DNA of 63,750 nucleotides, filler included, from Reclinomonas americana ATCC 50394 (GCA_048213135.1; 4 parts of 3 records of this genome joined end to end with filler, not necessarily neighbours in it), one strand, 5' to 3'; shown: positions 44 through 63,750, counted from the first letter of the whole stretch. Notes: generated by a model not told the origin, from the sequence alone. A program made the numbers and translations.

Positions 44-497
44 CGACCTCGAGCACAGTCTGGATGGTCTCCTGCAGCTGCTCACGCAGGTCGGCGCCCA
101 AGCTGCGCAGCTCCTCGGGCACCAGCTGTGCGTCGTACTCCTGTTGAATGCGGACCGAGGCCTTGGCCAACACCATGGACAAGAGGTTGATGAGCGACGT
201 GAAGAACGGCCAGCCACTGTGGAGAACAATGTGAGAGTCAACAAATGCAGAGAGTAGCAACAATGCTTTGCGCCGGCACACACACACCGATACATGGCAA
301 TCAGCTTTTCTTTGCCGCCTGGCTGCTTCATGACGCCGTTCAGCGCCACGCCGACACCGAGCCTGCTCAACAAAAACAATGTCAGTCGCCAACAACGACT
401 AGAAGCAGCGCGGCGCCGGAGCCGACGTAACCACACTGGCGCATGCAGGCGATTCTGCGTGAAGCAGAAGATCCACGGAATGGCTAGAGAGAACGAA
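44..497 (-). CDS. ppc: Phosphoenolpyruvate carboxylase, internal 3' exons (contig appears reverse-oriented)
   Basis: Spliced minus-strand reading gives RLHAPVW/LGVG...KEKLIAMYR/GWPFFTSLINLLSMVLAKASVRIQQEYDAQLVPEELRSLGADLREQLQETIQTVLE, which matches the PEPC C-terminal region. Introns are GT-AG. Confidence 0.85.
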
Positions 498-537
498 CNN
501 NNNNNNNNNNNNNNNNNNCCCCTGTCACACGTCACAG

Positions 538-798
538 GTGTCTGGCGACCGCTGCCTGCTGGAGCACGAACCCGTCGTGCTGCGCGCCATTCGCGTTCGT
601 GAGCCCTTCACCGACCCGATCAACATTCTCCAGATCCGCTGCCTGAAGGCGTACCGCACCGCCGCCGAGGTGCCGCAGGCCGTCCAGGACGCTCTGCTGC
701 TCACCATTCAGGGCGTGTCGGCCGGTACGTTGCACAGCACGAATTCCCACACGTCCCCATTCTGAATCGCTTGCACAGGCATGCAAAACACGGGCTAA
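538..798 (+). CDS. ppc: Phosphoenolpyruvate carboxylase, last two exons
   Basis: VSGDRCLLEHEPVVLRAIRVREPFTDPINILQIRCLK...DALLLTIQGVSA, then a GT-AG intron (~725-778), then GMQNTG-TAA, the canonical PEPC terminus. Confidence 0.92.
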
Positions 799-1166
799 CC
801 ACCCCGGATCTGCCGTTTCTCAACCGTGTCGTTTCTCTGTACCTTCTTCATTTTGTAACTCTCTTTACAAGCCAAGCGGTCCCGTTTTGCATGCACCGAC
901 TCCGATTCCGGGCGCATCGGAGTGACAGCATGATAAAAACCCGGCAGCGTGACTGACTTCAAACGCGTTCACTGAGCAAACACACACAAACATACACACC
1001 GACACTGTGCTGCATATGAGCGATCTGATGGGCTCGTCACCTTCTCAGCAACAACAACAATCGACTGCCTCGGCCACCGGAGGTTCATCTGTCCTCGCAT
1101 GACTCCGCGAGTGTGTGTGTGTCTCTCTCTGTCTCTCTGTCCCTGTGTGTGCTTGTGACCTCCCTC

Positions 1167-3619: not shown

Positions 3620-4809
3620 CAGTGAGCACAATCTGGAACACCGACTGCTGCAGTGGGCGGATCGTGGATTACCAGTGATGTCGATTGAGGCACGCATGAC
3701 ATGCATGTTGCGAATTGCCGAGGCAGTTTCTTCGCTGCATAAGTTGCGTGCCACATGTCTGGTTGTCTCGTGTTTTGTTTTCCATTCATTTGGACTCATG
3801 CTGTGGTTGCTACGATTCAGGCATGTGAGTGTGAAATGTGGTGTGTGTTTTTGGTTCATTTTCTCCTGTTGACTGACTCGTGTTTTCTTGTGCGCTTGTC
3901 GGGATGCGCAGAATGGTACGCGTTCTTGCTCTCCATCCTCTACTCATTTATCTCGCTCACTTGCTTTTTCTCTCGCTCAGTGATCCATCGCGACCTGAAG
4001 CCAGCCAACATTCTGTTCAATCACAGTGGAATGGCATACATCTCGGACCTGGGAGTGGCGCACTGGTTTCGCACCGAGGGGGTGAGTGACTCTTTTATGC
4101 ACTGTCTCTCCTTAACCTTTCCTCTCATCTCTTCTTTCTCCCTCCCCATCCTCGTGCCACAGACGCATCTGTCCGTCCATTTTGCTGGCGACCCAAAGTA
4201 CGCCGACCCCAAGGCCATGCATGGCCAGCTGCGACTGAGTTCGGATGTGTTCTCGCTCGGTCTCGTCCTGCTGCAAGTGTTCAGCGGTCTGCCGATCGAG
4301 GAGGTACATCGGCGAGTGGAGGCACTGGAGGAGATGGACGACATTGAAGGCGTCGATGGCGAAGCACTGCTCGATGCCGCGGTGGAGCTGGCGGATGGTG
4401 GTGTCGGTCGACCGTGGCCGGCTCCTGTGTGTGAGCGGATTGTGCGATTGGCACTCAGGTGAGTTTTATGTTCAGGAGAGAGTTGCGAGGAAAACGCATC
4501 GACTGACTTGCGTGGCCAATCTGCAGATGCCTGGATGGTCGACCAGCACGCCGTCCGACAGCGCAGCAGCTGGCGACCGAGTTGAGTGACCTGACGGTGT
4601 TGTCGTGTCGACGGGCGTGCATGGTGTGCGACGGACTGCGCGAGACGCGATTGCGTCCGTGCATGCACCAAGTGTTGTGTCGGGAGTGCGCGGAGCGGCT
4701 GGTGAGCAAGAGCGGCGAGTGCCCGGTGTGCCGCGTGCGAGTGGAGGGTGTGGATGCGGGCGAAGGATACGGGTTCCACACGTATGTGGCTCTGCCGGCG
4801 CGGAGATAA
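3620..4809 (+). CDS. IRAK/Pelle/RLK-like protein kinase C-lobe fused to a C-terminal RING-HC finger; 5' part unclear
   Basis: IHRDLKPANILF, ISDLGVA, AGDPKYADP, SDVFSLGLVLLQ, WP..V.ERIVRLALR/CLDGRPARRP, followed by CMVC..PCMHQVLCRECAERL..CPVCR. Confidence 0.8.
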
Positions 4810-6434: not shown

Positions 6435-9240
6435 TCACATCAAACCAAAGCCTTGCGAGTTCTGAATGGCCAGCGAAAGCTTGGCGCGTAGCTTCTCCTT
6501 TGACGAGTACTCTGCGATCGTATATCAGCTGACAAGCCCTCCCCACAGGCGCCACACACACACACACACACCTGGTATCAGCACGTGGTTGAAGCACGTG
6601 TGTGACGTCGGCAAACTGCACCAGAGCGTAGCAGGGGTCAGCGAGTGGTGCTAGCACGAAACATCACACAGAGATCAGCACCTTTCCGAATCCGGTCCCT
6701 GCCGCGCAAAGATGATTTGCAACTGCGCCAGACCCTCGATCGGTGCACGATCGCTGCCGGTGGCAAACTGCAAGAATCGCTGCTTGTCGGCTTCGTCGAA
6801 CTCGTGCACAATCTCCCACATCCAGCTGCGCGGTGCACAACAAAGGTCAGTATCCGTGCCACGGGCAAGCATCGTGCTGCCACAATGCACATACACACCG
6901 AATAATGTAGTGATCCCTGTTGTAGCCGTCGTCGTACCGCGCCGCCTTCTCCAGATCCTCAAAGTTGAGCTCTCTCTTGCCGCACACCAACAACTCCAGC
7001 TCCTCCGGACGGAACATCTGCCCCGAATCCCTCAGTCACCACGACAACCGACAACTACGCACTATGCACTCACACACACCTGCAACACCGGTCCCGCCAC
7101 CACCATCTGGAAGCCACGAACAAACGAGTGGAACTGCTTGTCCACCGAGTCCTGCAGGCGGTACTTGGTGTAGGCCTTGACGTACTCTGCGTCAACAGCA
7201 CTCTCAGCATTCACCCATCGACCGACAGCGACTCCGCCACACACCATCACGGTTCGCGTTGGTGACTGGCGTGTTCTTGCCGTTCTCGCACAATTCCACC
7301 TCAATGTGCTCGCCGAATGCCTCGCGATCCACCACCCAAGTGAGACCCATGTCTTCCGCCACATCGCCGGGGTAGTCGAGAATCGCCTGCAGGCTGCGAC
7401 CGAGAACCTACAACCCAAGTCGCGTTGAGTGGCGGGGCGATTCGCACGCCACGCACCACATACGATGGCACGCAACTGGATCCGTCTCCTTCAGGTCCTC
7501 AAAGAAGACGTCCTTGTTCAACAGCTTCTTGTACACCACCAGCGGGAACTGAATGTCGAGAATGATGTGATTGTAGATGGCCAGGCCAATGATCTGTCCG
7601 ATGAGCTCAAACTCAGCGTCGTCCGGCGAGTCCGGATTGAACCAGTAGGTTCGGGTGTCGGGGTTGAGCGTGAACATGCCTGGCGTGGAAAGACACAAGT
7701 CAGCTTACCCCCAAATTTGTGTGTGAAACGAGACGAACGCACCAAACGACGGATTGAAGATTTCGCGCACAATCAGCAGGAAGAACTCCTTCTGCACGCC
7801 GCCCTCGTCGATACCCTCTTCACCCACGAACTGCACCTTCAGCGGCTTCTTCAGGTCGCCAGCCTTGTTGGCCAGCTGCACGCACACGCGCATGTGAGTA
7901 CCGAATTGGGGAAGCACACANNNNNNNNNNNNNNNNNNNNNNNNNNNNNNNNNNNNNNNNNNNNNNNNNNNNNNNNNNNNNNNNNNNNNNNNNNNNNNNN
8001 NNNNNNNNNNNNNNNNNNNNNNNNNNNNNNNNNNNNNNNNNNNNNNNNNNNNNNNNNNNNNNNNNNNNNNNNNNNNNNNNNNNNNNNNNNNNNNNNNNNN
8101 NNNNNNNNNNNNNNNNNNNNNNNNNNNNNNNNNNNNNNNNNNNNNNNNNNNNNNNNNNNNNNNNNNNNNNNNNNNNNNNNNNNNNNNNNNNNNNNNNNNN
8201 NNNNNNNNNNNNNNNNNNNNNNNNNNNNNNNNNNNNNNNNNNNNNNNNNNNNNNNNNNNNNNNNNNNNNNNNNNNNNNNNNNNNNNNNNNNNNNNNNNNN
8301 NNNNNNNNNNNNNNNNNNNNNNNNNNNNNNNNNNNNNNNNNNNNNNNNNNNNNNNNNNNNNNNNNNNNNNNNNNNNNNNNNNNNNNNNNNNNNNNNNNNN
8401 NNNNNNNNNNNNNNNNNNNNNNNNNCACACACACACGCCAAAACACGGACCTCATTCAGCGCCGACACGATCAGGTTCTGGCGGAAAACGCGCAACACGA
8501 GGTAGGGAACAGGAGGTGGACCAAAGAATTGCACCGCAGCGGCAGCCTGCTCCCCCACAAGACAATCAATAAGTGAGCGAGTCAGTGAGTGTATGAGTGA
8601 TGATGATGATGGCAGGCGGACGTACCCGAACAGACTGTTGTTGGGCCTCCACCGACTCAATGCGCAGCACTTGGCTCTTTGTGGCCGCCGACAGCAGATA
8701 CGGGTGCTCGCAGAAAGAGAACACGGTTGGCGCACGAGAACTCCGTCGACTGCACGCGCGCGCGTTAAACAACCAATTCAATCGACAGCAGGCAGACGGG
8801 CAGACCCGCACTCAACTTTTGATTCAGCATCCACTGATGGTAGTCGTCGATGAGTTGCCGAATGTCCATGTCATTGATGGCATCGTTGTAGAACTCTTCT
8901 GGCGGGATCTTGCGCGTGAGCTCGTTGGTGCGAGCTGCACGGTTGCAGGAGAGACGATGAGTGCGAATCGTGGCATTTGAAGACTGACGAGTCGAATGAC
9001 GCACACAACACGCCGAGGAACTCGCCGGCCCACGCAATGCGCTCGTCGTAGCCGGTGGCGAGGAACCACTGCAACGTGATGAACTGTTGAAACACGTAGA
9101 CCACGCGCTGGAATTGCTNNNNNNNNNNNNNNNNNNNNNNNNNNNNNNNNNNNNNNNNNNNNNNNNNNNNNNNNNNNNNNNNNGGAGGGGAATTCATCAG
9201 TGCGATCAAAGTGCGAGGAACAATACGGACGCACGCAAGA

Positions 9241-10329: not shown

Positions 10330-12270
10330 CGTCGAGTCACATTTTATGGTTGCATGCAACACTATTTCGTCGCCGACAGTGTGGGTGGCGACTTCATGAG
10401 GCATGCGGAGCAGTGGTCTCAGTAACGTGAACAGCACATGGCGGAGAACGGCGAGGAGGGAGAGAACAACTTGATTGTTCTCCTCCTCGACTACAAGCGT
10501 GCCTACGACTCTGTGTGCCCCGAACTGATTGATCTCACACTGAAAGCGATGAACTTTCCTCCCTACATCGTCGACATGGTGGCAGACTGGATGCGGTACA
10601 TGCCGTTCTTCGCGACATGCCAGGAAGGCCTCCACACCAAGATCATGCACCAGAGGGTCGGCGTTCCCCAAGGCGACGTGCTGAGTCCGTTCATGTTCAA
10701 CCTCGTGGCCTCGATCTTCATCCGCCGCGTCAAGCAGCTGGAAGTCGGATACCGCTTTGCCAAGGATCCCTCCATCTGTGTTCACGTATCCGCCTTTGCT
10801 GATGATCGCCACGTGTGTCTCTCATCGGTGCAACAAGCGCAGATGGTCCTGGACGAGTCGCAACGGATCGGCGAATGGTCTGGCGTCAAGGACAACCCGG
10901 AGAAGTCGTTGGTCTTAATCTATGTGCCACTGGAAGCAGTTCGCGACTGCAACCTCACTCCTCTTCAGAAAGTCGATGCTATCCGCACCTTTATTCTGCC
11001 GAAAGCCACATTCGTCATGCAGTCTATCGATCTTACAGCAACCTTACTCAACGAGATTGACACCAAGCTCAGAGAGGCAGTGAGAGCTGCCACGGGGCTA
11101 GGAAAAGAAGCTGGCAACACAGTGATAGAGACACCGCTCTCCATGGGTGGGCTGGGAGTCCAATCCCTGGCCGACCGTCGCGCACCACTCCTCATCTCGT
11201 CGGCACACAAACTCCTCACGAGCGTGCGCACCCTTGTCAGAAATGTTGCACACAGAGTGAAGGCAGACACGATGGAGAAGTTTGCACTCTTGCCTGACAA
11301 CGCTGTCCCTCCCACCGACCACCTGTTCAAGAGAGAAGTCGTGCAGAACCACAAGGAGCTGCACCGCCAGCAGGTAGACGTCAATGCTCCCCCCCGTTTC
11401 TTTGACTTTCCCTTTGTCGCGAGAGAAGACGGTACCTTCGTGTTCAATGGTCAGCAGCCTGGAAAGACAGACAAGGCAGAGAACATCATCGCCACCGCAG
11501 CCACACTAGCAGCGAAGCACAGATTCAGCGTAGACTCCTACACCGATCCTGTCACCCAGAAGACCACCACGATTGGACGTCTCCCCGACAACACGACTGT
11601 CTTTCCGTTCACTGAGAAGTTTCTGAAGTCTGTCAACAAGTTTCAAGGAAAACAGAAGTCCGAGAAGTGGAGCGAAGAGGTGGCAGAAGAAAACGGAGAT
11701 GTGCACCCGAGAAAGTCAGGTCGCTTGCTTTCACTTACCGTCACGGTGCTGGCGCGCACGACTGCTTGAAAATCGGTCGTGGTCTGTATCCTAAACAGCA
11801 GTCTTTCGCCTTGAAACTGCGCACCAACTCTCTCTATCTCAACGCTACATACTCTAAACATCGCCACAACAATAACCCCATCATGGCGAGGTGCAGAGTG
11901 TGCAACATGGGACAGCCAGAGACAGTGGCGCACCTCTTGTGCTGGCACAGAAAGACAATGTGACGAGTCGGCACAACAGAGTGGCAACGATCTTGCACGA
12001 GGAACTCAGAGACTCGATTGTACACAGAGAGGCAGTCTTCTACACTGAGAAGGTCCCACAGAATTTGCTGGCAGCAGGAGAAGACCAGTTGGCTCTGTTG
12101 AAACCAGAGACATTGTGGCTGAAGAAGATGGGCATTGAGGGCGGCCAACTGCGCCGAGTGGTGGACAGATGGTGTGCCAAGGTCGTTGTCGGCAAGGGAT
12201 TTGTGGGCGTTTATCGCATTATTGGAATGTGGTGAATGAAGTGTTTTGTTTTTTGATACAAACAAAAAAA
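10330..12270 (+). mobile_element. Decayed, 5'-truncated non-LTR retrotransposon of the RLE class (R2/NeSL/Utopia-like)
   Basis: Intronless RT motifs LDYKRAYDSV, GVPQGDVLSPFMFN, AFADD and GGLGV. A CCHC-type knuckle (CRVC..ETVAHLLC), RHN and LKPE lie in shifted frames, with frameshifts near 11.7 and 11.96 kb. An A-rich tail is at ~12257-12270. Confidence 0.88.
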
Positions 12271-12329: not shown

Positions 12330-15300
12330 TAATCGTCGTCATCCGTGTCTTCATCATCTTCTGGAATGGCTCTGAGGCGGCGCTCCGTGTATTGGGCAAA
12401 CAAGTCGTTTTCGTCACTCAAATCTGTGCAGATTTCTCGCGTTTGTTAGGAATTCAGTATCCGAGTCACAGTACTGGTACTGGAACAGACAACAGTGATC
12501 CGGAAAGAGACAAAAAGAAAACAGAAATGGTAAGAAGCGCAACTTATCCAGGCATAGGACTTAATACGACGCAGAAGATTGTGATGAGGATCGCGATCGC
12601 CCTCCCCAGTTTCCATCCCGTCAAAGAACTCGGTCACAGCCGCCTCGATATCCACCATGCTCAGGCGGCGAGCTGCTGCTGGACGCAGTCGATCACCATG
12701 TGCTCCAGGGGCGCGGTCAATGTGACGCTCAAGGAAATGGTGAAAGAAAGTTGCCATTTGCTGTTGCAGTTCTCCATCCTTCGCGAGCTCTGGAACGCGC
12801 TTTTGAACAAGGCGATGCACGAACCGCCGTGCTTGGTCCATGTCGGGAAGGCCAATGTGCAGGATCAGATCAACGCGCTTGGAGCGAATGAGCCGCTTGG
12901 ACAACGCCTTCACGACATTGGTGGTAAGTACCACCACCTGCACGCAAGAGGGATACAAACATGTTAACAGATGCATCATTGTACATGTATGCGTACGCAA
13001 ACACGTGCACATGTACAGAGACTGTACACAATCGTGTGCTGTGATCTCCCGCTGCACACGCCACACACCTTGCCGCTGCATGGTTCACCGACTCCGTTGA
13101 GTACATTCGTCAAGCCCTCTTCCGTGACGGCAATGTGCGAACGACTGTGCACGAATTCGAACACAAATTAATACCGAGTCACAAATAAGAACATCTATTT
13201 GCAATGCACAGGAGACGTACGTTGGGTTCCTTGGATCAGGCATGATCATGTCGAAGTCCTCTGCAAGGACGACATTGAGTGCTGGGACTTCATCAACCAA
13301 GCGCGGCAGGTTGGTGTCGTTGAGTCCTGGAGCGTTGAAATTAACGACGTAGATGTTGCCGCGATCGTAATCGCTAGCGCTCCCCTCTCCCGCTGCAGCT
13401 GTATTCTGTTTGAGAAGCGAGGCGATGTAGTGTGCCAACAGAGACTTTCCAGAACCCGGCGGTCCATGAAGCAGGATGACCAGCTTGCGTGTGGCACCGC
13501 CATTCTGTGCCAAGCTTGCTTTTGAGTGCATGAACAAGCAATGAATTCGAAGAGAGCACCCGCAGCGTACGCGACGAACGACGTTCGGCTAACTGTAATT
13601 CCCCCAATTGCAAGAACTCACCTTAAGGCGCCGCACAGCATCCTGTACACGCTGCAGGTGGTCGGCCATCAACACCACGTCAGCAGCCGTCTTCGGTGGC
13701 TCGCGTCGCTGCATCGGCGCCCACATGAGCTGTTGATTGACGCGCCAGATGCTGACATTGTCGCGCATGGCTCTCGTGTACTCGCGAACGGCACAGTTGA
13801 CAAAGAATGTCAGCAGGTTGCGATGGCGCTCGTCGTAGCCGTCGGAGTCGTCCTCTGTTGTCATCTTGAAGTCGAGCATGTCGACGGGCACTGCCGAGCT
13901 CTCGAGCCTGCGCATGCGCCACCATAATAACGATCGCAGTGGTCGCAAAATCGATATCGTGAGTGAAAATTAAATATTGCGCAATTGCAATTGCCCCCCC
14001 CCCNNNNNNNNNNNNNNNNNNNNNNNNNNNNNNNNNNNNNNNNNNNNNNNNNNNNNNNNNNNNNNNNNNNNNNNNNNNNNNNNNNNNNNNNNNNNNNNNN
14101 NNNNNNNNNNNNNNNNNNNNNNNNNNNNNNNNNNNNNNNNNNNNNNNNNNNNNNNNNNNNNNNNNNNNNNNNNNNNNNNNNNNNNNNNNNNNNNNNNNNN
14201 NNNNNNNNNTAACTAACGTAATACGTACGTAGTAATAAATTAAAATTAATTAGTCCGACTACGTACGTACTACTACCCCCCGTCCCCCCCCCCGCCCCCC
14301 CCCCCACCCCCCCACCACACACACACACAATCATACATGACGTACATACAACGCCACGTAGCACTGCTCAGCTGATCAGCATCTCACCTTTTTCGCGTTA
14401 CACGAAATGTCACTTCACGGTCGTCATCGACATCGTCGTCAGCAGCTTCAAATTCGAGCCTCTCAAGCTCACTGTCCTCCATCATCGCGTCGCCATGGTC
14501 AAGAACGTGGTTGACGAGAGAAGAGGGCAGCCTCACGATGAATTCGTTCTCCATGTATCCAACTTCGTAGACCACCAAATTCATCGCGGGCTCGCGATCG
14601 GCAAACTGCCGCGGGGGGGCTGCTGAGCCTTCTCCACCAGCTGCGCCACCAGCTGCAGCTGTGCCTTCTCCACCAGCTGCGCCACCAGCTGCAGCTAGCG
14701 CTGTGCCTTCGAATTCTCCACCAGCTGCGCCACCAGCTGCAGGTGCAGCCTCGGCGCCGGCCTCACCCTCAACGTCGACGTCGGAAGAAGGTTGTTGCGA
14801 TCGTTGTTGCGCGTGTTGTGCCGCGGCGTCGGCGCCGGCCTCCTCCTCAACGTCGACGTCGGAAGAAGGTTGTTGCGATCGTTGTTGCGCGTGTTGTGCC
14901 GCGGCGTCGGCGCCGGCCTCCTCCTCCACGTCGACGTTCGAAGAAGGTTGTTGCGATCGTTGTTGCGCGTGTTGTGCCGCGGCGTCGGCCTCACCCTCAA
15001 CGTCGACGTCGGAAGAAGGTTGTTGCGATCGTTGTTGCGCGTGTTGTGCCGCGGCGTCGGCGCCGGCCTCCTCCTCAACGTCGACGTCCGAAGAAGGTTG
15101 TTGCGATCGTTGTTGCGCGTGTTGTGCCGCGGCGTCGGCCTCACCCTCAACGTCGACGTCGGAAGAAGGTTGCTGCAATTGCGCGTGTTGTGCCGAAGCC
15201 ACGTGCACCGCCGCTCGGTCGGCATCTGTCACTCGACGACACGTGAGATACCGCATGAATGGCTTGAAAAGTGGTGACCGCGATAAGAATTCCACCACAG

Positions 15301-51045: not shown

Positions 51046-51376
51046 GAGCGCACTGCTGGCACGCTGTGCACGGCTGTGCCGCGAAAGGCAATGGTCACGA
51101 CTCACGCAAGCCGTGGCGGCGTTTGACACGGCCCCCCAGCCACCAGCACCAGTAATGACGACGAGTCGGCGGAACGGGGGCGGAGCATCGTCGTCATCGG
51201 GGCCACCGAGTCGATCGTCCAGTCGCGGCGGCGGAAGTGCTGCCGGTAGTCGGAGTAGTTCTGTCGCCTACTCGGACGACGACGCCAGCTCAGTGTCGAG
51301 CAAGGCGTCGAGCGGTGTCATGTCGTCGTACTCATTCACCGCGTCCCTGCCGGCTCTGACTAGTCTGCGGAGGTAG
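51046..51376 (+). CDS. Terminal Ser/Gly-rich exon of an unidentified gene
   Basis: Follows a polypyrimidine tract ending ccgcag and reads open to TAG at 51374-51376. Confidence 0.4.
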
Positions 51377-51411
51377 CAAATGAACGGAGAAGTGCCGTTC
51401 TCTTTATTCTT

Positions 51412-52548
51412 TCATGATGCCACAAAGGAGAGCACGACACCACACGCATCGGCGGCGCCTGGCGCGGTCAGCTCAATCACCTGCCCACGCTCGACAAACG
51501 GCACACTGGCCGCACGCAGCGTCTGCCGCACAGCATCCAGCGACGCCACTCGTATTTGCATGGCGGCCATCCACGGCTCCTTGTCGGCGCCGAGAAGCTC
51601 CCTGCGCACCGCCGCCTGCCCGTGCACGGCCGCGAATCGCTGCGCCGATTGCACGACCACGCAAAAGGCCGGGTCGCCCAGATGCAGCACCACGTCATCA
51701 CTGCCACTCTTCAGCTCGACCACGTGCGACTCGTCGCCACCAGTTAATCGCGCCAATCGTGACGCCAGTGCGGCATGATCGCGACAAAGCGCCGCATGCA
51801 CCTCGTCGGCCATGACCAGCGTCACACTAGCAATGCTCTGCGCCGTGTTGCGATGCTGCATCCACTCAGGCTTCCACACCAGCTCTCGCGTCAAGTGCGC
51901 ACACACAAACGCACGCAGCGGTGCAGTCGATGCCGCCGCCGGGTACACCAGCTGAAAGAGCGGCCACGTCGACGCCGGCTGCCCGTCGTACTGCCTTCCG
52001 AGCTCCTTTGGTCCTGCTCCACACGCACGCATGCAGTGAGCTCGCCATCGCTCGTACACACATTGGCGACGCGCGTACCCTCGAACTGTACACCAGCCGC
52101 ACGCCATCGTTCCGCTGTCGCCTTGCTGTCATCAGTGGCCAGCGCCAAGCTCAGCAATCCCGGTCCGCGATCGCGCAGAAACGTGTCCAAGTTGTTAGTG
52201 AAGCGACTCGGATCGACAATGCCCAACAGCTCAATCTGCGAGCAGTGAGCGCTCGACAAAAAGAGCGATCGATCGCGATCAGGACTCACATAATCGCGAC
52301 CCGATGGCATCATGATGCAATAGTTACCGGTGCCCCAACTGCCAGCGCATGTGAGACAGGCAAGGTTGTGAACGGTACAGGCACGAGCGCGCGCGGAACT
52401 TGTTGTGAATGCCGCGCCAGGCCGCAGTGAATCCCAGTCGCTCAAAGCTCTTCCGCGCAGCTTCCAGATCGCTGACTCCGATCAGCGCGTGATCGAGTCC
52501 GCACAGACGCCCCTTGGCAGCAAAGGCAGACGACGAGAGCATGCGCAT
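51412..52548 (-). CDS. VOC/glyoxalase-like protein (Glyoxalase_3 type), 4 exons
   Basis: LDHALIGVSDLEAARKSFERLGF, WGTGNYCIM, Y/IELLGIVDP, GLLSLALATDD and FVCAHLTRELVWKPEWMQHRN, with three GT-AG introns. Confidence 0.82.
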
Positions 52549-52957
52549 GGACAGGAGGAAGATATCAGCTTGTCCTCGACGTCGGCATCAGTTTGCTTTC
52601 AGTTTGCGCTCTTTCCCTGTACTCTCGCGTCTGTCAAGGTGCTATCTCTCCCATGCGTTAATACGCGAGGAGTACGAAGGGCGAGTGAAAGCGAATGATG
52701 CGACGTCGAGGCGGATGAATATACGCGCCAAACGGTCAGATTTCTATCAAACAACTCTTCACACACTCGCCCGCACGCACGCTTCACGCACGCTCACATG
52801 TCAACAGCCGGTCCGTCATCAACTCCACCCGTCGACACCCGGTCAGTGGCCACACTTGGAACACACACACGCACACAGTTGCTCAACACTAACATACGCA
52901 CACACACACAGTCGCCCAGTGACACGCTCAGTCAGTCGCAAGCTCAACAAAGACCCC

Positions 52958-54388
52958 ATGGAGATCGTCACTGATGAGTCGACAACAACAACCACCACAA
53001 CGACTACAACAACAACTCCTCAGTCGGCCTCGTCGATGGGCCCTCCCTCGTCGCGTCGTCGTCGCGGCGACGATGCGCCGTGTGGAGGCAGCAGCGATGT
53101 GTGCAGCAGTGAGATGTCTGAGGCGTCGCCGGCTGCGTCGCCTGCGGTGTTTGAGCGGATTGATGTGGCGGATGAGGGCGAGTGGGCGGGCCGAGTGGTG
53201 CAGGCGCTGCTGAGCGAGGACTGGAAGCAGTGGATTGCGGGGTGTGAGGGCATTATGGAGCGAGTGCGCGTGCAGGGTGGGCGCATGAGCAGCGCGGATG
53301 TGGCGAGTGTCGTGGAGCCGCTGTGCCGGAGGGTGCGGACTGCTGTTTGCCTTGCGCGGTGTATTCGTTTGCTGCGGCTGATTTTTGAGTTGCAGATGGA
53401 CAACTTGCGGTCGACGGTGGTCAAGTCGTCATGTACGGCGGCCACGGCACTGGTCGATGCGTTGACACAGGACGACTTGCGCGACACGGCACCGCTGTTC
53501 ATTCCCGCACTGCTGTCGCTCACGTGCAAGACGACTCAGGTTTGTTGTTATGCTGCTGCAATGCACAAGTTATGCATGGTGTGTCTCACACCCTCAGCAA
53601 ACGCACAGGTGATGGCCGACAGCGGCCTGGCATGTCTGCACCACACGGCGCGCGCATTGTCGCCGTTGGTGGAGGGCCCGAGTCTCCTGTCGCTGCTGGA
53701 CGGCTGCCGCGCAGCTCATGCGTTGCGTCGCCCAAACTGACACGTCGCGCAAATCGTGACCCTCTTCCACTCACGTGTGTGTGTGTTCTTGCGTTCAGCA
53801 TGATTCGCCGTAGAAGCATCGAGGCTCTGGCGCTGGCCATGGCGCCGTCGAGTGGCGACGCCGTGGGCGAGCTGCTCTTTGAGGCCTTTGGCACGGCGTT
53901 GGCGGACGCGTCGGCTGATGTGCGCTCGGCGGCACGCGAGGCGTTTGTCAAGGGCGAGAAGGTGTTTGCGGACATTGGCGCACGGTGCGTATACTCTCGC
54001 GATGGTGTGCCCTGCGGAGAGACCGCACAGCTCATTACTTCTCGGTGCAGTGTGAGGAACACACTGGCCGGCACGGCACGCACCGTCCTGGAGGGTGGCC
54101 ACAACAGCACCAGCAGTGGCAGTGAATCGGCATCCTCAGGTGTCACTCCGACGTCGGCGACTGCGGCCGGTGAGAAGAGGCCCAAGTCTGCCGTGGCCGA
54201 CGCCATTCGCAAGGCCAGGTTTGTCGCGTGCCAAATGTCTTTTTCTTCCTTCATCGTTCACGCGCTCAGCACCGCCGTCTATGGTCCCACAGAATGGCCA
54301 AGAAGCCCGAGGCAGCCGGCTACGACGACGGTTTCCTGGTGTTGTGCCCGGAGAAGCCACCCGTCGGCAACACCACCGTCACGGACCT
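52958..54388 (+). CDS. CLASP N-terminal/TOG (HEAT-repeat) domain protein; 3' end in a gap
   Basis: EDWKQW, DNLRSTVVKSSC, FIPALLSL, VMADSG..CL and LADASADVRSAAREAF are CLASP_N-type motifs. Confidence 0.78.
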
Positions 54389-54579
54389 NNNNNNNNNNNN
54401 NNNNNNNNNNNNNNNNNNNNNNNNNNNNNNNNNNNNNNNNNNNNNNNNNNNNNNNNNNNNNNNNNNNNNNNNNNNNNNNNNNNNNNNNNNNNNNNNNNNN
54501 NNNNNNNNNNNNNNNNNNNNNNNNNNNNNNNNNNNNNNCGAACGAACGAACGAACGAACGAACGAACGAACGAACGAAC

Positions 54580-54637
<58 letters not shown>

Positions 54638-54679
54638 CAAGAGAGAGCAAGAGATGGAGAAAGTGAGTGAGTGAAAACA

Positions 54680-56694
54680 CACCAGCTCCCTCATTCGTTG
54701 TTGGTTCGTCGCAGACTCGGCACGCAAATCGGCCTCCGTTGGACCCTGTTCTGCAGGAGTGGACGGTGGCTTGGCTGCACGGCGGGGTGAGACGAGGGAG
54801 GCGCGACTGAAAGGTGGAAGACGGATGCGCACCAAAATCTTCGAGTTGTGCGTCAATGTCGGCAATCTTCTTCTCCAGCTGAAATATCTTGGAGCGGAAC
54901 GGCTCGAGCACTTGCAGAACCTTGCCGCATTTTTCCATGCCCAGCACCCATGCACACAATCCCACCGCTTCGGGACACCGCGCAGCCACCACCTGTGCGA
55001 GGGATGGGAAGATGAGAACAAGGCTATCTTCCTCAATCGGCACTGGAGTCACTGCGCGCAACATTAGACGACAGCATGCTCGTGACACCAGCGAGCTTGG
55101 CCAGGTGCGACTCGGTGAGGTTCTCCATCTCGAAATCCATGAGCATGTTGGAGAACACTGCCGATCGCGTGAGCAGATAGAGTAAGACAGCGACGACGTG
55201 CGACAAAGACTCACCGTCGGGATCCACCAACAACTTGCCGGCCTCGCGTACCACGTAGGTGGTTGGTCTCTGAAAGAGAATCAAGACAGCCTCCAGCACC
55301 CGCACCAACTGTGCCCGCCGTTCGGTGAGTCGCAGGAAGTGATGGGAGTACACGCGGAGTGCGATCAAGCACCTCTGGTGGATGTCTGGAGAGGCTGCGC
55401 AACACTCGCAAATCTTCGACCTTGTGAGCATCCAGAAACGGCTGCAGCGCCAGCTGAATTTCCGGGTGCAGCTCCTCGCGTGCCCCGTCCAGCTCATACT
55501 CTGCAGCCTCCAGCAGCGTCACTAACCGTTCCCGTTCGTGCTGTAGCCGCCGCACGGCGCGAGACTGCGCCACACACGAACAACCCACATCAGCCTATTG
55601 CGAATCGCCGGTTCACCACGAAGAATTCAGGCGCGCACCGTGCTCCCTGGCGATGGCTCCGAGTCCGACTGCTCCTCATCCACCGGAATACGCTCCACAA
55701 ACGAGCTCGACATTGAATCGGCGTCCGAGAACGAACTTGCGCGCGAATGTTTCCGCACACTCGTCGCCTCCGACTCGACCTCCCGCTCCGCCGCCGCCGC
55801 CGCCGCTGCACCTCCCCTTATCAATAACCTCTCTCTCTCTCTGCACAGAGCCTCGTTCCATCGCAGCACTCACCCAGCTGCGCCAATTCACGTTCATACG
55901 ACGCGATCAGCTGCCGATGCTGCTCGACCTCGCGTTGCCGCGGCACCACAAACTCATGAAACAATCGCGTGTTGCGTTCCACTGCCAACACCCACGCGCA
56001 CAGCACAGCCGCCACTCGCGAATGCTTACCCACCTCCTACACACAAACGCACTCAGAGAAGAGCACGTGAACTGCAACGATCCACACAATGTGCGCACTG
56101 TTGGAGAAAAGAGTCGATCGGCGGCAAACTCGTGCAACTTTGCCACAGCAAACGAGGGGATGTTCTTCATCTCTAGCTTCTGCAGCAGATCCACAGCACC
56201 TGCACTTGCCCACATGAGCGCGAAGAGAGAGAGAGAGGCAATGATTGCAAGAGAAAGCACGCGACCTGCTGACGAAAGCAAGCGACGTGCATCGGCCAGC
56301 GTCGACGGCTTGTTCAACACAATCATCACTGCACGCATCACCTTCTCCACCTACAACAACAACAACAACAAGTAATAAGAGTGTGCGCGCGCCATTTCGC
56401 TCAACACCACTTCTTTTTTTGCAAACAACGCCCGCTGACCGTTGGTCTCACGGTGCCTGGCTCCTGCTCACACAGGTGCACGAGGTCGGTCTCGGTGAGC
56501 GCCAGCAACGCCAGTCGCGGTGCCTCCATCGCCGACGAGAACGCAGACAGCTCGTTCTCACTGGCGCGCAACGCAGCCTCGGCCTCCACACGAAGCCGCT
56601 CAAGCTCGTGCGCCCGACCCATCTATCTGAACACACACACAAAGACACACACACAGACTGCAACTTCGTTCTCGACAATGGACAGTGCGAGCAT
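54680..56694 (-). CDS. Protein with two dynein heavy-chain stalk/microtubule-binding-domain-like modules and no AAA ring visible
   Basis: Module 1: APRLALLALTETDLVHL..EP/VEKVMRAVMIVL...KNIPSFAVAKL...LCAWVLAVE..VVPRQREVE. Module 2: VEDLRVLRSLSRHPPE/LVRVLEAVLILF...FEMENL...GLCAWVLGMEK..VLEPFRSKI. Both are flanked by coiled coils. Confidence 0.62.
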
Positions 56695-56730
56695 TATGAT
56701 CGTTTTTTGTAAGGTTTTTGTGGTGTTTTC

Positions 56731-57069
56731 ATGGCTGCGACTTCGTCTAGTGCTGCTGCGGCTTCTGCAGCTGGAGCCAGTGCCGAGGCGGGAGCTGCGA
56801 TGCCAGATAACTTTGTGTGGCAAGATAGAGAGATCCGCTTTGATGTGCCTCCACCGTTGAGTTGTCATGTGATTGTGTGTGTGTTGTGTTGTGTGTCTCT
56901 CATGTGTGTGTGTGTGTTTGGTTGTAGTGAGCTGTCGCTGAGACCTGGTGAGAAGATCATTGATGCGATTGACTCGATTGAGGATACCAAGGGCAACAAT
57001 GGGGAGCGCGGTGAGTTGGTGGGAGAGAGAGAGAGAGAGAGAGAGGAGGAGAGGAGGAGGAGGGAGGAG

Positions 57070-57114
<45 letters not shown>

Positions 57115-59272
57115 AGAGAGNNNNNNNNNNNNNNNNNNNNNNNNNNNNNNNNNNNNNNNNNNNNNNNNNNNNNNNNNNNNNNNNNNNNNNNNNNNNNNNN
57201 NNNNNNNNNNNNNNNNNNNNNNNNNNNNNNNNNNNNNNNNNNNNNNNNNNNNNNNNNNNNNNNNNNNNNNNNNNNNNNNNNNNNNNNNNNNNNNNNNNNN
57301 NNNNNNNNNNNNNNNNNNNNNNNNNNNNNNNNNNNNNNNNNNNNNNNNNNNNNNNNNNNNNNNNNNNNNNNNNNNNNNNNNNNNNNNNNNNNNNNNNNNN
57401 NNNNNNNNNNNNNNNNNNNNNNNNNNNNNNNNNNNNNNNNNNNNNNNNNNNNNNNNNNNNNNNNNNNNNNNNNNNNNNNNNNNNNNNNNNNNNNNNNNNN
57501 NNNNNNNNNNNNNNNNNNNNNNNNNNNNNNNNNNNNNNNNNNNNNNNNNNNNNNNNNNNNNNNNNNNNNNNNNNNNNNNNNNNNNNNNNNNNNNNNNNNN
57601 NNNNNNNNNNNNNNNNNNNNNNNNNNNNNNNNNNNNNNNNNNNNNNNNNNNNNNNNNNNNNNNNNNNNNNNNNNNNNNNNNNNNNNNNNNNNNNNNNNNN
57701 NNNNNNNNNNNNNNNNNNNNNNNNNNNNNNNNNNNNNNNNNNNNCTTCTCTCTCTTCTCTCTCTCTCCTTCTCTCTCTCCCTCTCTCACTCACTGTCTGT
57801 GTTCTGCAGGAACGCTGTCGATCACCAACCTGCGCTTGATATGGGTGTCGCAAAAGAAGGCCAACATCAATCTCTCCGTCGGCTACAACTGCGTGATCAA
57901 CATCACGATTCACACGGCGAACTCGCGGCTGCGAGGTCACACACAGGCGTTGTACATTCTCACCAAGTTCAACAATAGTCGCTTCGAGGTCGGTGCTTCA
58001 TGGTGTTGGCAGAGTTGTCGCGCGTGTCGATTGCCTGACTGTAAGTTCTCTGTGCCGCAAGTTCATCTTTACGAACCTCGTCAAGAACAGCCCGCGGCTG
58101 TTTACCACGGTGCAAGCTGTGCACAGGTGCATCATCTCACCACTTTCGGAGTCATGTGCACGGCGCTTACACGTGTGAACAGAGCATACGAGACAAGTCG
58201 GTTGTATCGTGATCTCAAATTGCGTGGAGCCATCATTCGCGAGAAGGAGCTGTGCTTGCTGCCAAAGGAGCAGGTGTTCAGCCGTGTCAACGGTGTGTGG
58301 AATCTCTCCTCTGATCAGGGCAACCTCGGCACGTTCTATATCACGAACGTGCGCATTGTATGGTGCGTCGTGCTCTCGTGTTTGTGAAGACACTGGTTCG
58401 ACGATTGACGTCCGTTCTCTCTCTCTCTCTCTCTGTGTGTGTATGTGTGTGTCTGTCTCTCTGTCTGTCTGTCTGTGTGTGCCTGTCTGTCTGTTTGTTT
58501 ATTTGTCTCTCTCCTTTCTCTCTCTTCGTTTGCCTGTTCTCTCTCTCCCTCTCTCTCTCTCTGTGTGTGTGTGTGTGTCTGTCTGTCTGTGTGTGCCTGT
58601 CTGTCTGTTGTTTATTTGTCTCTCTCCTTTCTCTCCCTCTCGCTCTGTATGTGCGTGCCTGTCTCTCTATCTATCTATCTGTCTTCGTCTTCTCCCTCTT
58701 CTCCCTCCCCCCCTCTCTCTTCCCCCCCCTCCTCTCCCTTGCAGGTTCGCCAACTTGGCTGAGAACTTCAACGTGTCGATCCCGTTTCTGCAAATCAAGA
58801 CCATCAAGGTCCGCGACTCCAAGTTCGGCAAGGCGCTGGTGATTGAGACGTCGCCCAGCAGTGGCGGTTACGTCCTCGGTTTCCGCATCGATCCGCTGGA
58901 GAAGCTGAATCAGGTGTTTGAGGAGATTCAGAACCTGCACAAGCTGTTCTCGGCCAAGCCCATTTTCGGTGTCGACTATGTCAGCGAGGACAAGGTGTGG
59001 GCGTAGTGATTGGTTGATCATCATCATTTTCTGTTCGTCGTCGTGGCTAACTGTCCTCTCAGCCCCCGACACTAAAAGATGTGACGGTGCCGAGGGCGGA
59101 GGAGAAAGTCGAAGTGATTGAGACGGAGGACGAGGTGGCCGATGCGTTTGCGGCCTACTACGCCGACACGAACAAAAATGTGGACCGGGAGCCCATTTTC
59201 AGCGCGGAGCTCGGGCTGGCCATTGAGCGACCAAAGGACGGGGTCACTCTCGAGATGTTGTGGAAGGTGTGA
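56731..59272 (+). CDS. BBS5: Bardet-Biedl syndrome 5 protein (BBSome subunit), 7 exons
   Basis: [79 protein letters not shown] and [10 protein letters not shown]. Confidence 0.97.
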
Positions 59273-59344
59273 GGGCGGAGTTGCCACGGTGCATGTACGC
59301 GCGGACAGGCGCACGTGTGTAAGTGTGTAAAGGGAAAGCTGAAA

Positions 59345-59772
59345 CGAAGGATGGAAGTAATTCGCGTTTCTTGCCTGTTCGTATGCCACCACGTGTGTGT
59401 ATGCAACAGAAAGAGAATGGAAAATAATTTGTGTTTCTTTTTACCCTTGCCTGTATCGTGTGTCTGCAACAGCAAAGAGAATGGAAAATAATTCATGTTC
59501 CTTGTTACCCTTGCCTGCATTCGTCTGCCACCACATGTGTGTCTTCAACAGAAAAGAGAATGGAAATAATTGGGGTTTCCTTTTCCCCTTGCCTGTATCT
59601 CTGGGCCACCACATGTGTGTTTGCAGCAGAAAAGAGAGTGGAAAATAATTCGTGTTTCTCTGTACCCTTGTCTGTATCGTGTGTCTGCAACAGCAAAGAG
59701 AATGGAAAATAATTCGTGTTTCTTTATACCCTTGCCTGCATCGTGTGCCACCACCACATGTGCGTGTGTCTA
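59345..59772. repeat. Intergenic minisatellite, ~6 degenerate copies of a 63-80 nt unit
   Basis: Repeated unit (g)caacag(c)aaagagaatggaaaataattcgtgtttct..tacccttgcctgtatcgtgtgtct, with an optional gccaccacatgtgt insert. Confidence 0.9.
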
Positions 59773-59788
59773 CTCGCTGTGCTAAAGC

Positions 59789-62700
59789 TCACAGAATCTT
59801 GTTCCGGAAGTCCTCCAGCTTCTTCGCCACTTCTGTGGGTGTGCGATCGAGTTCGCCCGCAATCTCGCGTTGCTTCGCCGCGTCAATGGTGGTGAATTGT
59901 TCGCACAAGTCACCGTCGCATGTTGCCTGCGGGGGGAAACAAGTGAGTCGCGCGACTCGACAGACTTGTTGGGATACAAACACACACCTTGACTGGGTAG
60001 TAATACGAGCGGAACGCCATGTGATCGCGACCGCACAGTGGCGGGTGTTCTTGCCGCATGTGCATCTCCAGCGCGCTGTAAAACTCCACATCCTCGGCGG
60101 TGGCGAACGGAGCAAAGCAGCCAATGGCACCACTCTGTGTCGTGTAGACCAGCGTGTCGGCGCCGCCCAGCATCAACGAACACCGCTGCAATCGTGTGAT
60201 AATGTCGCCCAAGTGGAATTGCACAATCTCCTCAGCCTGGTTGTGCGTGCACACACGAGTGAGACGATATCGCAAACGAGGACATGTATGTGTCTGTGTG
60301 AGGGCGCAACTCTGTACGGTGCTCCATTCAGGTAGCCGCGCTCCCACAGGAATCGCTCGCCCATGTCCTCCGCCGCCTTCTCGGCCACGTCCTTGGAGAG
60401 TCGGCACACGAAGAGGTTGCCGAATTTGTCGCCACCTGGGAAGGCGAAGGGAGACGGGGGATGTAAGCAAAGGGAAAGCGAAACAGAGACAATGAAACCG
60501 GCACGCATGCGTGAACACAGACGCACGCACAGAGAGAGAGAGAGAGAGAGAAGGGAAGAGAGCAAGAATGCAAGAAAGAGAGACAGACAATGACACAGGC
60601 GCGTACTGTCGCGCATGAACATGGATGCATGCACAGAGAGAAGACAACGGAGGACGGGTCAGAAGGGAGAAGGAAGGAGAAGGAGATTAAGGAACGAAAG
60701 AAAAGAGAATGAGAGAAAATGATGCGTGACGATGATAGCAGTGGTGTGTGTGAGGGTGAAAAGGGGGAAGGATTGATGTCGTTAGAGAGAAGGAGAGAGA
60801 GAAAAAGGGAGATAGATAGAGGAGAGAGTGTGAGAGAGAGAGAAAGAGAGGAGAGACAGACAGACAAACACATGGACACACGCAAACACAGAGAGAGAAG
60901 AGAAGAGAGAACAAGAATGTATGTATGAAAGAGAGAAACAGAGAGTGACAAAGATGCATGCACAACGAGCGACGGGAGGAAACAGAGATGGAGCACGACT
61001 GCATCGGAGAAGAAGAGATAATGGCAGGCGCGTACTGTCGTTCATGCATGCATAGAGAGAAAGACTAACAAAGAACGCAAGAATGAAAGAACGAATAGAT
61101 ACACGGGAGAAGAGAGACTATGTCACAGGTGCATACTTGCATGCACGAACACACACGCTTGTACTGAGAGTGAGAAAGAGAGACACCATGGCAAAGGCGT
61201 GTACTGTCATCCATGAACACACACGTATGCTAAGAAAGAAAGAGAGAGAAAGAGAGAGAAAGACAGAAAAAACAACACACTCACACAAACTCTCTCTCTT
61301 CCCCCCTCTCCCCCTCCCTCTCTCCCTTCCCCTCTCTCCCTTCCCCTCTCTCCCTCCCTCTCTCCCATCCACCACTCACCAGCCAAGGTGTTGGCATCGA
61401 CAAACTCGGAGGCCACCACCCACCGCGGTGCGACATCGTCAGCAAAGATCGAGATGGTGTTGTCGCGACGGTTGTACGACGCGAAGTGGAAGCTCTCCGT
61501 AATGTCGCTCACGTAGATGCGATCGTGGAACACGCGGATCGAGGTGATGAAGTTGGGGAAGTTCTGCAAGCACGCGTGAGACGACAGCCGTCGGCGCGCT
61601 CAAGGAACGGAGAGGGAGCGCACCCTGTTTTCACACTTGCGCAGGAGCTTCTTCTTGCCGAGATCGTACAGACGCAGAGTCTTGCCGACACCAGCCAGAA
61701 GGCGACCGTCGAAAGCAGCAATGGCATACGGCACATCCTTGACTGGTGTCTGCGAGTGGCCAACAAGCGTGAGATCAAGCGGCACAAGTGGTGGTGTGCA
61801 CACATACGATCGGCAAACCTTGTGCAGCAGGTCGAGCTTGTAGCCTTCACGCATGCGATACACGTACAAGAAGCCGCAGCTCGCGGAGCGTTCGGGCCAG
61901 AACGACAGGTCCTTGGCGGTGCCGACGACCAAGAAAATCTCCTGGCCGAACTGACATGTGCACACGCTGAACGCTGCCTCGTTGTCCTCCAGCTCCACCA
62001 AGTCCAGTGTTCTCATCTGGGTCGAGTGAGGGTGAGGGAGGGCAAAAAGAAAGAAAGAGGGGGAACAAAAAGGACGCACCGACACCGGGTCAAAGATGCG
62101 AATGCACGATGCCCACTTGCCGGTTGGCGCTTTGATGGGGTACAGATCGCGGTCGTGCTCGACGGCGGAACCGGATCCTGAGCCGCCGGCGCCCTCCTGT
62201 CACCACACAAAGTGAGTGAACAACATGAAGCGAAGAGGGAGAGGGAAAAGGGGGGGAGAGAGAGAGGGAGGAGAGGTGAGAGGGAGAGGGAGAGGGAGGA
62301 GGGGGAGGGGGAGGGAGAGGGAGAGGGAGAGAGGAACGGAGACTCACAAACACACAATAGAGAGAGGCGTAGGGAGAGATAAAGAGAAAGAGATTCGGAC
62401 AATCACAGCAGAGAGAGGAAGGATAAGGACAGGGAGGATAAAGGAGAACATGAGGACGGAGAATTGAGGTACGCCACACACAAAACAGAGAGTGAGGGAG
62501 ACAGAGACTCACAGACGGATTCAGACGAAGAGTGGGATTGATTCACACAAACAGCGGAGAGAGAGAGGAGGGAGAGACACAGAGAGAAGCAGACTCACAG
62601 ACACAAGGACACACCCGATGAACAGATGAAAGAGAAAAGACTCACACGGATTGAGACACACACGGGAGCAAACAAACAACGAAGAGACAGAGAGAGGGAG

Positions 62701-63750
62701 AGAGACGCACACAGAGATACAAGCAAACCAAATGCAGTGTCTCACATACGCGCTCAGGAGAGGCATTGAGAAAAATAGAGAGACACGCACAAACAGGGAG
62801 AGCACGCGCGCTCGCTCTCATTCAGACACTGAAGAGACAGTGAGAAAGAGAGAGACATGAACGCAGACACACACGCACACAGCACACACACACGCACACA
62901 CATACGTACACAGATACACACAGAAAAAAGAAAGTGGCAAACACACAAACACGCACATAAACAGTTATTCCGAGAGACACTACGAGAGATATAAATGCAA
63001 ACACAAAACACAAAAACAGAAAGACAAATACGATTTCCCCCTCTCCCTCTTCCCCCCTTGCCTCCCTCCCTTCTCCCCTGTTCCCCAAACTCACATCCTC
63101 CATATCCATATCCATGGCCTCCTCACGCATCCGCGCCCGCTCGGTGATGGTGTACGCTCTGTTGTCGCTCTCGATAATGGACAGGTAGTTGGTCTGCGGA
63201 TTGACAATGATCTTGCGCGGCGTAAAGTGCAGCGGCACACTGATCTGGTTGAATGACTCGCCCAGACGCTCAAAGTAAAAGATTCTGTGCAGTCGGTGAG
63301 CATCGAGTGAAAGGATGGGAGAAGGAGAAAGGCTGCGCACCGCAAAAAGTTGCCAGAGACCGCCACCACACCCTGCGGGCACGGTCCTGACGAGAAGCCG
63401 GAGGCGTAGTCAAGTGCCTCGTATCTGGCGGAGCGAGGTGAGCGCACAGCAAAAAAAGGGAAAACACACACACTCCATTGAAAAACGCAACGACAGCGGC
63501 GTCATGTGGTACTTGCCCTGGTGATCGTAGCAGAGCCACGGTCGTGCCGACAGCGCCAACACGGCGTTGCTCTGGCCGACCTTGATCTTGATCAGCTTCA
63601 CCCCGCGCGCGCCGAGGAATCTCGCTCGCGAGTCCGCCAGCTCGCCCGTGACCTTGTCCATCACGGTGCGATGGAGGACGCCGGACGACAGACCAACGTA
63701 CAAGTAGAGTGCCTCGGCTTCGGCAGAGGAGGCTGCCGAGCCACGCATTT
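59789..63750 (-). CDS. SF3B3: Splicing factor 3B subunit 3 (SAP130/Rse1), C-terminal half; 5' part lies outside the window
   Basis: HMTPLS/YEALDYASGFSS, YDLGKKKLLRKCEN, IFADDVAPRW, GDKFGN, HPPLCGRDHMAFRSYYYPVK, DGDLCEQF and ELDRTPTEVAKKLED. Confidence 0.97.

Follow-up and report, generated by a model that had tools for sequence, protein, structure and literature searches.

How is the 5' end of an intron recognised when the exon before it does not end in G? The question is raised by a stretch of DNA of 63,750 nucleotides (nt) from Reclinomonas americana ATCC 50394 (GCA_048213135.1), analysed over its whole length and referred to here as the window, in which an initial annotation had listed 17 introns that begin with GT, then an extra T and then the usual GCG, GAG or ACG. 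We call these shifted donors, as distinct from ordinary donors such as GTGCGT. The window consists of four scaffolds (1-22633, 22734-38897, 38998-50614 and 50715-63750) joined by N-TTAATTAATTAA-N spacers, with a G+C content of about 57% (73% at codon third positions in Pfam-supported exons), and its recognisable genes include the end of PEP carboxylase (PEPC), a HECT ligase, a P4-ATPase, BBS5 and the C-terminal half of SF3B3. From the comparison of these genes with their homologues we conclude that the shifted donors are a real class of GT-AG introns.

Boundaries were inferred from sequence throughout. We used a purpose-written protein-to-genome spliced aligner that required only GT...AG and a minimum length and carried no donor weights, with eight full-length homologues for SF3B3 (40-47% identity), 12 for BBS5 and 20 for the P4-ATPase (32-42% identity). 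Further introns came from a self-trained Viterbi gene finder based on codon usage, intron composition and a 3' module, whose first-pass donor was simply 'GT'. The 24 introns with majority homologue support in SF3B3, BBS5 and the P4-ATPase, chosen without regard to the claim under study, make up an unbiased set, while a merged set of 85 introns (68 ordinary, 17 shifted) combines the homology-checked introns with the others of the gene model, 27 of them being homology-checked or hand-added and 58 model-dependent. The shifted class was defined as GTT followed by G or A at +4, C or A at +5 and G at +6. All 17 listed hexamers were present at the positions and on the strands that had been annotated (14 GTTGCG, two GTTGAG and one GTTACG), and the corresponding introns are as follows, with the last exonic base in lower case.

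363-431, minus strand: PEPC intron, 69 nt; donor GTTACGTC after g, branch-like CTGAC, acceptor GCAG; PEPcase profile
7408-7476, minus strand: HECT-domain intron, 69 nt; donor GTTGCGTG after a, acceptor TGTAG; E6AP chain 1c4z_A
8750-8816, minus strand: probable intron, 67 nt; donor GTTGAGTG after a, acceptor GTGCAG; 100 open codons upstream, open downstream exon ending in g before GTACGT
18638-18699, minus strand: P4-ATPase C-terminal intron, 62 nt; donor GTTGCGTC after c; gene model, CTCAC/CTTAC branch motif and CAG
19247-19318, minus strand: P4-ATPase intron, 72 nt; donor GTTGCGCT after c; 17/20 homologues, 9/10 with GC donors allowed
20313-20391, minus strand: P4-ATPase intron, 79 nt; donor GTTGCGTG after a, acceptor ATAG; 7/20 homologues, gene model and flanking codon scores
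21342-21408, minus strand: P4-ATPase intron, 67 nt; donor GTTGCGTT after g; 14/20 homologues
22074-22137, minus strand: P4-ATPase intron, 64-67 nt; donor GTTGCGTG after c; 16/20 homologues, acceptor at 22074 in ten and at 22071 in three
30397-30457, plus strand: intron, 61 nt; donor GTTGCGTG after t, CTCAC branch motif, GCAG; gene model, preceded by 306 open codons, with positive codon scores on either side
32287-32356, plus strand: possible intron, 70 nt; donor GTTGCGTC after a; gene model, flanks of low complexity with weak codon scores
48409-48501, minus strand: possible intron, 93 nt; donor GTTGCGTC after c, following a 50-nt exon; reading only
49024-49082, minus strand: possible intron, 59 nt; donor GTTGCGCG after a, TTTAC, TGCAG; reading only
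53722-53798, plus strand: intron, 77 nt; donor GTTGCGTC after c, CTCAC, TCAG; gene model, preceded by 409 open codons, with a codon score of +21 downstream
54993-55062, minus strand: intron, 70 nt; donor GTTGCGCG after t, CTCAT, CAG; gene model and flanking codon scores
56856-56927, plus strand: first BBS5 intron, 72 nt; donor GTTGAGTT after c; 11/12 homologues, 8/8 with GC donors allowed
60237-60310, minus strand: SF3B3 intron, 74 nt; donor GTTGCGCC after a; 8/8 homologues, 7/8 with GC donors allowed
63425-63491, minus strand: SF3B3 intron, 67 nt; donor GTTGCGTT after c; 8/8 homologues, also with GC donors allowed

Eight of the 17 sites (63491, 60310, 56856, 22137, 21408, 19318, 7476 and 431) are confirmed by protein homology with no donor model involved, a GT start and an AG end restoring a continuous conserved protein at each, as in U2-type GT-AG introns. 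In SF3B3, the codon at junction 63491 (TCA) encodes a serine that is present in all eight homologues, and the same eight alignments placed ordinary donors, all after g, at 63340 and 61623 (GTGCGC), 62079 (GTGCGT), 61818 (GTTTGC), 61379 (GTGAGT) and 59987 (GTGTGT). The one BBS5 homologue that did not return the donor at 56856 is without the N-terminus; the ordinary donors of this gene, again after g, were GTGAGT, GTCGGT, GTGCAT and GTGCGT in 12/12 homologues and GTGTGG in 11/12. For the P4-ATPase, the first codon after intron 19318 is TTT, and the homologue residue at this point is F in nine, Y in seven and N in one, while the ordinary donors 22297, 21797, 21264, 20675, 19915, 19768 and 19555 are each preceded by G. 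Acceptors varied among the seven homologues that returned donor 20391, and donor 18699 was found in only 2/20 because the C-terminus of the P4-ATPase is not conserved; a homologue search with this C-terminus gave no match. Elsewhere in the same gene, 30 in-frame bases at 19385-19414 (minus strand; GTCGAC...CGCAG after t) were spliced out in 17/20 alignments and are more likely a ten-residue loop insertion than an intron.

The two remaining homology-confirmed sites were read against a structure and a profile. At 7476 the upstream exon reaches residue 139 of the E6AP chain and the downstream exon begins at residue 140 with no gap, and the alternative preferred by the gene model (7456/7394) would insert two unmatched residues. 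At 431 the split codon tg/G encodes the W of ...PVWLG..., which we take to be a PEPC motif; the PEPcase profile is matched from 746 to 764 up to the junction and next from 791, two exons on, which fits a middle exon of 24 residues. The gene model used a donor at 436 here, and homology contradicts both of its shifts to nearby ordinary-looking donors.

For seven further sites (8816, 18699, 20391, 30397, 32287, 53722 and 55062) the self-trained gene model, the intron anatomy (59-93 nt, branch-like CTNAY and YAG) or both suggest shifted donors. The gene holding 30397-30457 had no family match, PDB held no match to either exon flanking 8816, and the downstream one of these two exons had no Pfam match either. 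Reading alone makes introns at 48501 and 49082 plausible, a short intron being complete at each, and at both the gene model chose otherwise: for the first it kept the acceptor and took a GTTGTT donor at 48512, and for the second it ended the frame at the stop codon at 49038-49040. The class had been said to occur on all four scaffolds, and this stands in part, with verified sites on scaffolds 1 and 4 and model-supported sites on scaffold 2, but on scaffold 3 just the two sites placed by eye.

The shifted donors proved as abundant as had been claimed, accounting for 6/24 introns of the unbiased set and 17/85 of the merged set. Five of the six were exact GTTGCG, and the probability of five or more arising by chance at intron base composition was 5e-7. 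To the possibility that the class is a product of chance or misplacement, GTTGCG being a common word in GC-rich DNA that would be favoured by placing introns by eye, we give almost no credence, since aligners and models ignorant of GTTGCG recover it. What speaks for it is that about half of the sense copies inside genes are not donors and that the gene model disagrees with the sites at 48501 and 49082, which were placed by eye. The word occurs 72 times on both strands of the window, compared with 53.9 +/- 7.7 in shuffles, and this raw count is weak evidence because the word is not rare, so that each junction needed independent evidence; it is also inflated by a tandem repeat at 14794-15117, which carries ten of the copies. 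Predicted genes contain the word 28 times in sense (14 donors, ten exonic and four within introns) and, with the tandem repeat excluded, 14 times in antisense, the sense excess being equal to the number of donors. GTTGCG was also first among the tabulated GT hexamers for having a branch and acceptor module 50-95 nt downstream (19/72, background 9.6%, p = 3.7e-5); for GTGCGT the figure was 15/80. The tandem repeat itself (plus strand) has GTTGCG words in pairs (ten copies), with 12 bases from one start to the next within a pair and a period of 72-78 bases. It lies within long open frames on either strand and matches LRRNT weakly.

As the initial annotation had proposed, shifted donors follow exons that do not end in G. 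The last exonic base was G in 1/6 shifted and 18/18 ordinary introns of the unbiased set (Fisher 1.4e-4), and in 2/17 shifted and 56/68 ordinary introns of the merged set (chi-square 5e-7). In the latter, the base at -1 of the shifted donors was A in seven, C in six, G in two and T in two, a composition that differs from that of ordinary -1 (p = 5e-7) and not from that of ordinary -2 (p = 0.77). The invariant exonic G at -1 in the ordinary donors of SF3B3, BBS5 and the P4-ATPase is an observation in its own right, stricter than most eukaryotes show.

The proposal that both donor types align in one register was likewise upheld in the merged set, where positions +4 to +7 of the shifted donors mirror +3 to +6 of the ordinary ones:

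Ordinary -1: G 56/68; shifted +1: G 17/17
Ordinary +3: G 46/68; shifted +4: G 16/17
Ordinary +4: C 30, T 20 and A 12 of 68; shifted +5: C 15 and A 2 of 17
Ordinary +5: G 57/68; shifted +6: G 17/17
Ordinary +6: T 52 and C 11 of 68; shifted +7: T 13 and C 4 of 17

Shifted positions +4 to +6 in this comparison are partly set by the class definition (the G at +6 wholly so) and hence give no free test. The block is thus displaced by one base, its G and U falling at +6 and +7, the G at +1 standing in place of the G at -1, and -1 itself free or A-like, which is the pattern of a +1 shifted register. GTT donors as a whole divided by the preceding base in the manner predicted, with G at +5 in 9/12 of those after G (GTTTGT, GTTCGT) and G at +6 in 15/18 of those after another base. 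The shifted class was also the more uniform, GTTGCG(T/C) making up 14/17 as against 17/68 for GTGCG(T/C) among ordinary donors, whose words included GTGCGT (12), GTGCGC (five) and GTTTGT (five).

A subclass of the ordinary donors, GTTTG(T/C), always followed an exonic G (22231-22297, 19496-19555 and 61750-61818 on the minus strand; 42157-42211, 42530-42599 and 54219-54292 on the plus strand). An intron-initial GTT thus has two meanings, set by the last base of the exon.

Could the cut fall elsewhere than before the GT? A GC-AG intron starting three bases later, after an exon ending in ...GTT and before GCGTG..., would keep an extra valine codon in the messenger RNA and cannot be told from the GT-AG intron by reading frame. 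When GC donors were allowed, five of ten homologues at 21408 moved to GCGTTT after GTT and three of ten at 22137 moved to the GC position, leaving these two sites ambiguous, while the GT position was kept at 63491, 60310 and 19318 in the proportions listed above. We consider GC-AG introns very improbable as an account of the class: at 7476 the E6AP alignment is free of gaps with GT only and would gain a residue with GC, GTTGAG and GTTACG donors are impossible as GC introns, and the exons would always end in T, contrary to the -1 G rule of all other donors. The P4-ATPase does contain a genuine-looking, probable GC-AG intron (20993-21058, minus strand, 66 nt; GCGAGTGG...TGTCACAG after g, donor GCGAGT), which was chosen by eight of ten homologues with GC donors allowed and clears up a stretch left ambiguous when only GT was accepted. 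A cut after the first G of the intron (G/TT...AGN/) was rejected. The next exon begins with G in only 5/17 cases, so the junction base would be altered at 12/17, and at 19318 the F or Y of 16/17 homologues would become V.

Apart from the donor, the two classes look alike. The 23 homology-verified introns were mostly 56-79 nt long, and by eye most of them, of either class, showed a CTNAY motif ahead of a CAG acceptor, 10-35 nt upstream of the YAG. The median length (70 nt) and the CAG type of acceptor were equal, with C at acceptor position -3 in 63/68 ordinary and 13/17 shifted introns. Because lengths, acceptors and CTNAY motifs are alike, one machinery probably serves both. We rejected the notion that these introns are copies of a single mobile element, since visual inspection of the verified GTTGCG introns showed the donor, the branch motif and the acceptor to be all that they have in common.

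The division into two donor types also emerged in the gene model. A two-component mixture fitted to its first-pass donors already separated a type with G at -1, G at +3, G at +5 and T at +6 from one with A or C at -1, T at +3, G at +4 and C at +5, and after five rounds the components were GTG(C/T)GT after G (77%) and GTTGCGT after A or C (23%). The model holds 11 of the 17 listed donors. A gene finder given only GT..AG signals was too noisy, and when intron composition was self-trained it moved towards low-complexity CT-rich sequence, the number of verified introns recovered falling from 13 to eight of 23. Beyond the 17 listed sites, the model alone gave two candidates:

3743-3820, plus strand: candidate shifted donor in a kinase gene, 78 nt; GTTGCGTG after a; exon ending ...taa, frame doubtful
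12424-12543, minus strand: candidate shifted donor, 120 nt; GTTGCGCT after a

How, then, might such donors be read? We propose that the shifted introns are ordinary U2-type GT-AG introns in which the 5' recognition block is displaced inward by one base. Ordinary donors have the form GU(G/U/A)(C/U/A)GU after a near-obligatory exonic G; after exons with another final base the intron begins with GUUG(C/A)G(U/C), its own G at +1 replacing the exonic one and the GCGU block standing at +4 to +7, so that one position of a seven-base block differs (U for G). The 5' end of U1 would pair one base slid (G+1 with C9, U+3 with A7, G+6 with C4 and U+7 with A3), the cut would fall at the sole GU present, and U6 would probably need to tolerate an additional base ahead of the point at which it pairs. 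U6 normally pairs with +4 to +6, where the shifted donors offer G-C-G, so an offset of U6 would be needed too. With a little more confidence than doubt, we hold a slid U1 register, probably accompanied by U6, to be the best explanation of the shifted class, one that agrees with all the statistics obtained. We further predict that the U1 of this organism carries G at position 5 (ACGYAC), as is reported for Mastigamoeba, which would let both donor classes pair well.

A wider formulation, which we advance tentatively and with more doubt than confidence, is that a single seven-base block, G-(G/U)-U-G-C-G-U, may be read by a U1 with G at position 5 and the intron cut at whichever GU is present. Recognition and cleavage would then stand at two fixed offsets, a quarter of introns would pair U1 and U6 one base out of step, and one mode would require the exonic G while in the other an intronic G would take its place.

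A nearest-neighbour duplex model built on borrowed U1 sequences without pseudouridines, which motivates the prediction of a modified U1 and shows nothing more, gave the shifted donors a mean of -1.4 kcal/mol with the standard U1 end, weaker than the -2.9 kcal/mol of 600 random GT sites. With the Mastigamoeba-type end (ACGUAC) the means were -8.2 kcal/mol for ordinary donors, -5.2 for shifted donors and -4.2 for random sites, with G+1 paired to C9 in 9/17 shifted donors.

Several of our results weigh against a slid register. With the Mastigamoeba-type end the shifted donors were just about 1 kcal/mol better than random, and only those 9/17 fell in the shifted register. Two shifted donors (21408 and 431) are preceded by G, and C at -1 (6/17) is about as frequent as A (7/17), pairing with U10 leaving the C unexplained. 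Exonic preferences at -2 and -3 are too weak to tell the registers apart, shifted -2 resembling ordinary -2 (p = 0.99) and ordinary -3 (p = 0.88) alike. Finally, the model behind 58 introns of the merged set learned donor motifs, and of the 23 homology-verified introns it recovers 14 and misses nine.

The depletion of G at -1 is what separates the slid register from a bulged one, in which U1 would pair normally with G+1 and U+2, one U (+2 or +3) would bulge out and pairing would resume from G+4 to U+7. The two have equal numbers of pairs, and the duplex model paired G+1 with C8 in two to three of the 17 shifted donors; a bulge +2/+3 register has moreover been established experimentally in human cells, with 54-68 predicted sites (PMC4856993). 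A bulged register should favour G at -1, which would add a pair with C9 as in ordinary donors, and G was not favoured there, so that on the inference from these 17 sites we favour the slid register and regard bulging as unlikely, though a serious contender.

Another way to account for the same donors is a dedicated second U1-type small nuclear RNA (snRNA) whose 5' end would be the complement of GUUGCGU, ordinary U1 serving the remaining introns. The uniformity of the shifted class and the poor pairing of its donors with the standard U1 end are what such an RNA would lead one to expect, and the co-evolution of U1 5' ends with donors has precedents in Entamoeba (AACAAAC) and Mastigamoeba (ACGUAC; bioRxiv 10.1101/2022.06.08.495308). 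A perfectly matched second U1 would not need a strict -1 rule, however, and Rfam revealed no snRNA in the window, either at gathering thresholds or at E <= 1, nor any family reaching its gathering score. We therefore think a second U1 quite improbable and retain the slid register as the preferred reading.

The window also contains two kinases, MsrB and a reverse transcriptase. The last of these is a 447-codon open frame without introns at 10426-11766 (plus strand) with an RVT_1 domain (E = 7e-17), probably a retroelement. BBS5 (56794-59269, plus strand) was 67-72% identical to nearly all of its near-full-length homologues, with two partial alignments at 74-77%; its best-named matches were Discoba-like (euglenid, diplonemid and jakobid), and Mastigamoeba stood at 71%, too low for the window to come from that species. 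No close relative emerged from the protein and metagenome collections searched. A metagenome scan revealed none with the P4-ATPase C-terminal exon, and with a BBS5 exon it gave 58 loci that reached at most 74% identity, or 69% over the full exon, and were left unused. A 944-nt SF3B3 intron (60436-61379, minus strand) carries long GA-rich tracts whose counterparts are CT-rich tracts towards the opposite end, forming arms of 31-39 nt that are 72-84% complementary; these tracts give weak microRNA-like Rfam matches at 61229-61346, and of five long introns tested this was the only one with such GA/CT inverted repeats.

If our reading is true, a genome in which one in four or five introns begins with the same fixed shifted word, under the simple rule of whether the exon ends in G, would lend itself naturally to the study of two questions about splicing, namely how the cleavage site is fixed once U1 leaves and whether U6 tolerates an offset of one base. 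In human, sites with shifted or bulged U1 pairing needed proof case by case (PMC4856993). There is also a practical consequence, in that a gene finder whose training covered ordinary donors will put shifted junctions in the wrong place and so predict wrong proteins, as our own model did at 7476 and 431.

GC-AG and U12-type introns likewise form minority donor classes beside GT-AG introns within one genome, the latter marked by an (A/G)TATCCTT donor and a TCCTTAAC branch site. Unlike either, the shifted donors start with GT and share their branch motif and acceptor with the major class. We rejected a U12-type origin on finding GTTGCG, GTTGAG and GTTACG donors with CTCAC-like branches, and no ATCC-type donor or TCCTTAAC-type branch.

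Human 5' splice sites were reportedly found to be read by U1 in a +1 shifted register by Roca and Krainer in 2009. These human sites resemble those of the window in having GU at the cut, the block one base intronward, the equivalents of +5G and +6U at +6 and +7, and G+1 in the place of -1G. The human bulge +2/+3 register (PMC4856993) resembles the window in its extra U between GU and the block and in offering equal potential pairs, but predicts that -1G is kept, whereas it is depleted here. Validated non-canonical registers together make up 1.5% of 201,541 human donors in the same source. Among the Archamoebae, Entamoeba combines GUUUGU donors with a U1 of AACAAAC, and Mastigamoeba balamuthi combines GUGCGC with ACGUAC, according to a preprint (bioRxiv 10.1101/2022.06.08.495308), where each species has one register or atypical donor and where GUUG, GTTG, 'shifted' and 'register' do not occur. 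Among the matches listed in our literature search, no paper described a GUUGCG or GTTGCG(T) donor class. The ordinary donors of the window resemble these Archamoebae consensus words, GTTTG(T/C) after G being similar to that of Entamoeba, and their C at +4 suggests the same change in U1. The shifted donors of the window differ from the few human +1 shifted sites in comprising 20-25% of introns, in having a near-fixed GUUGCGU where the human sites are GUUAAGU-like, and in being tied to exons with a last base other than G.

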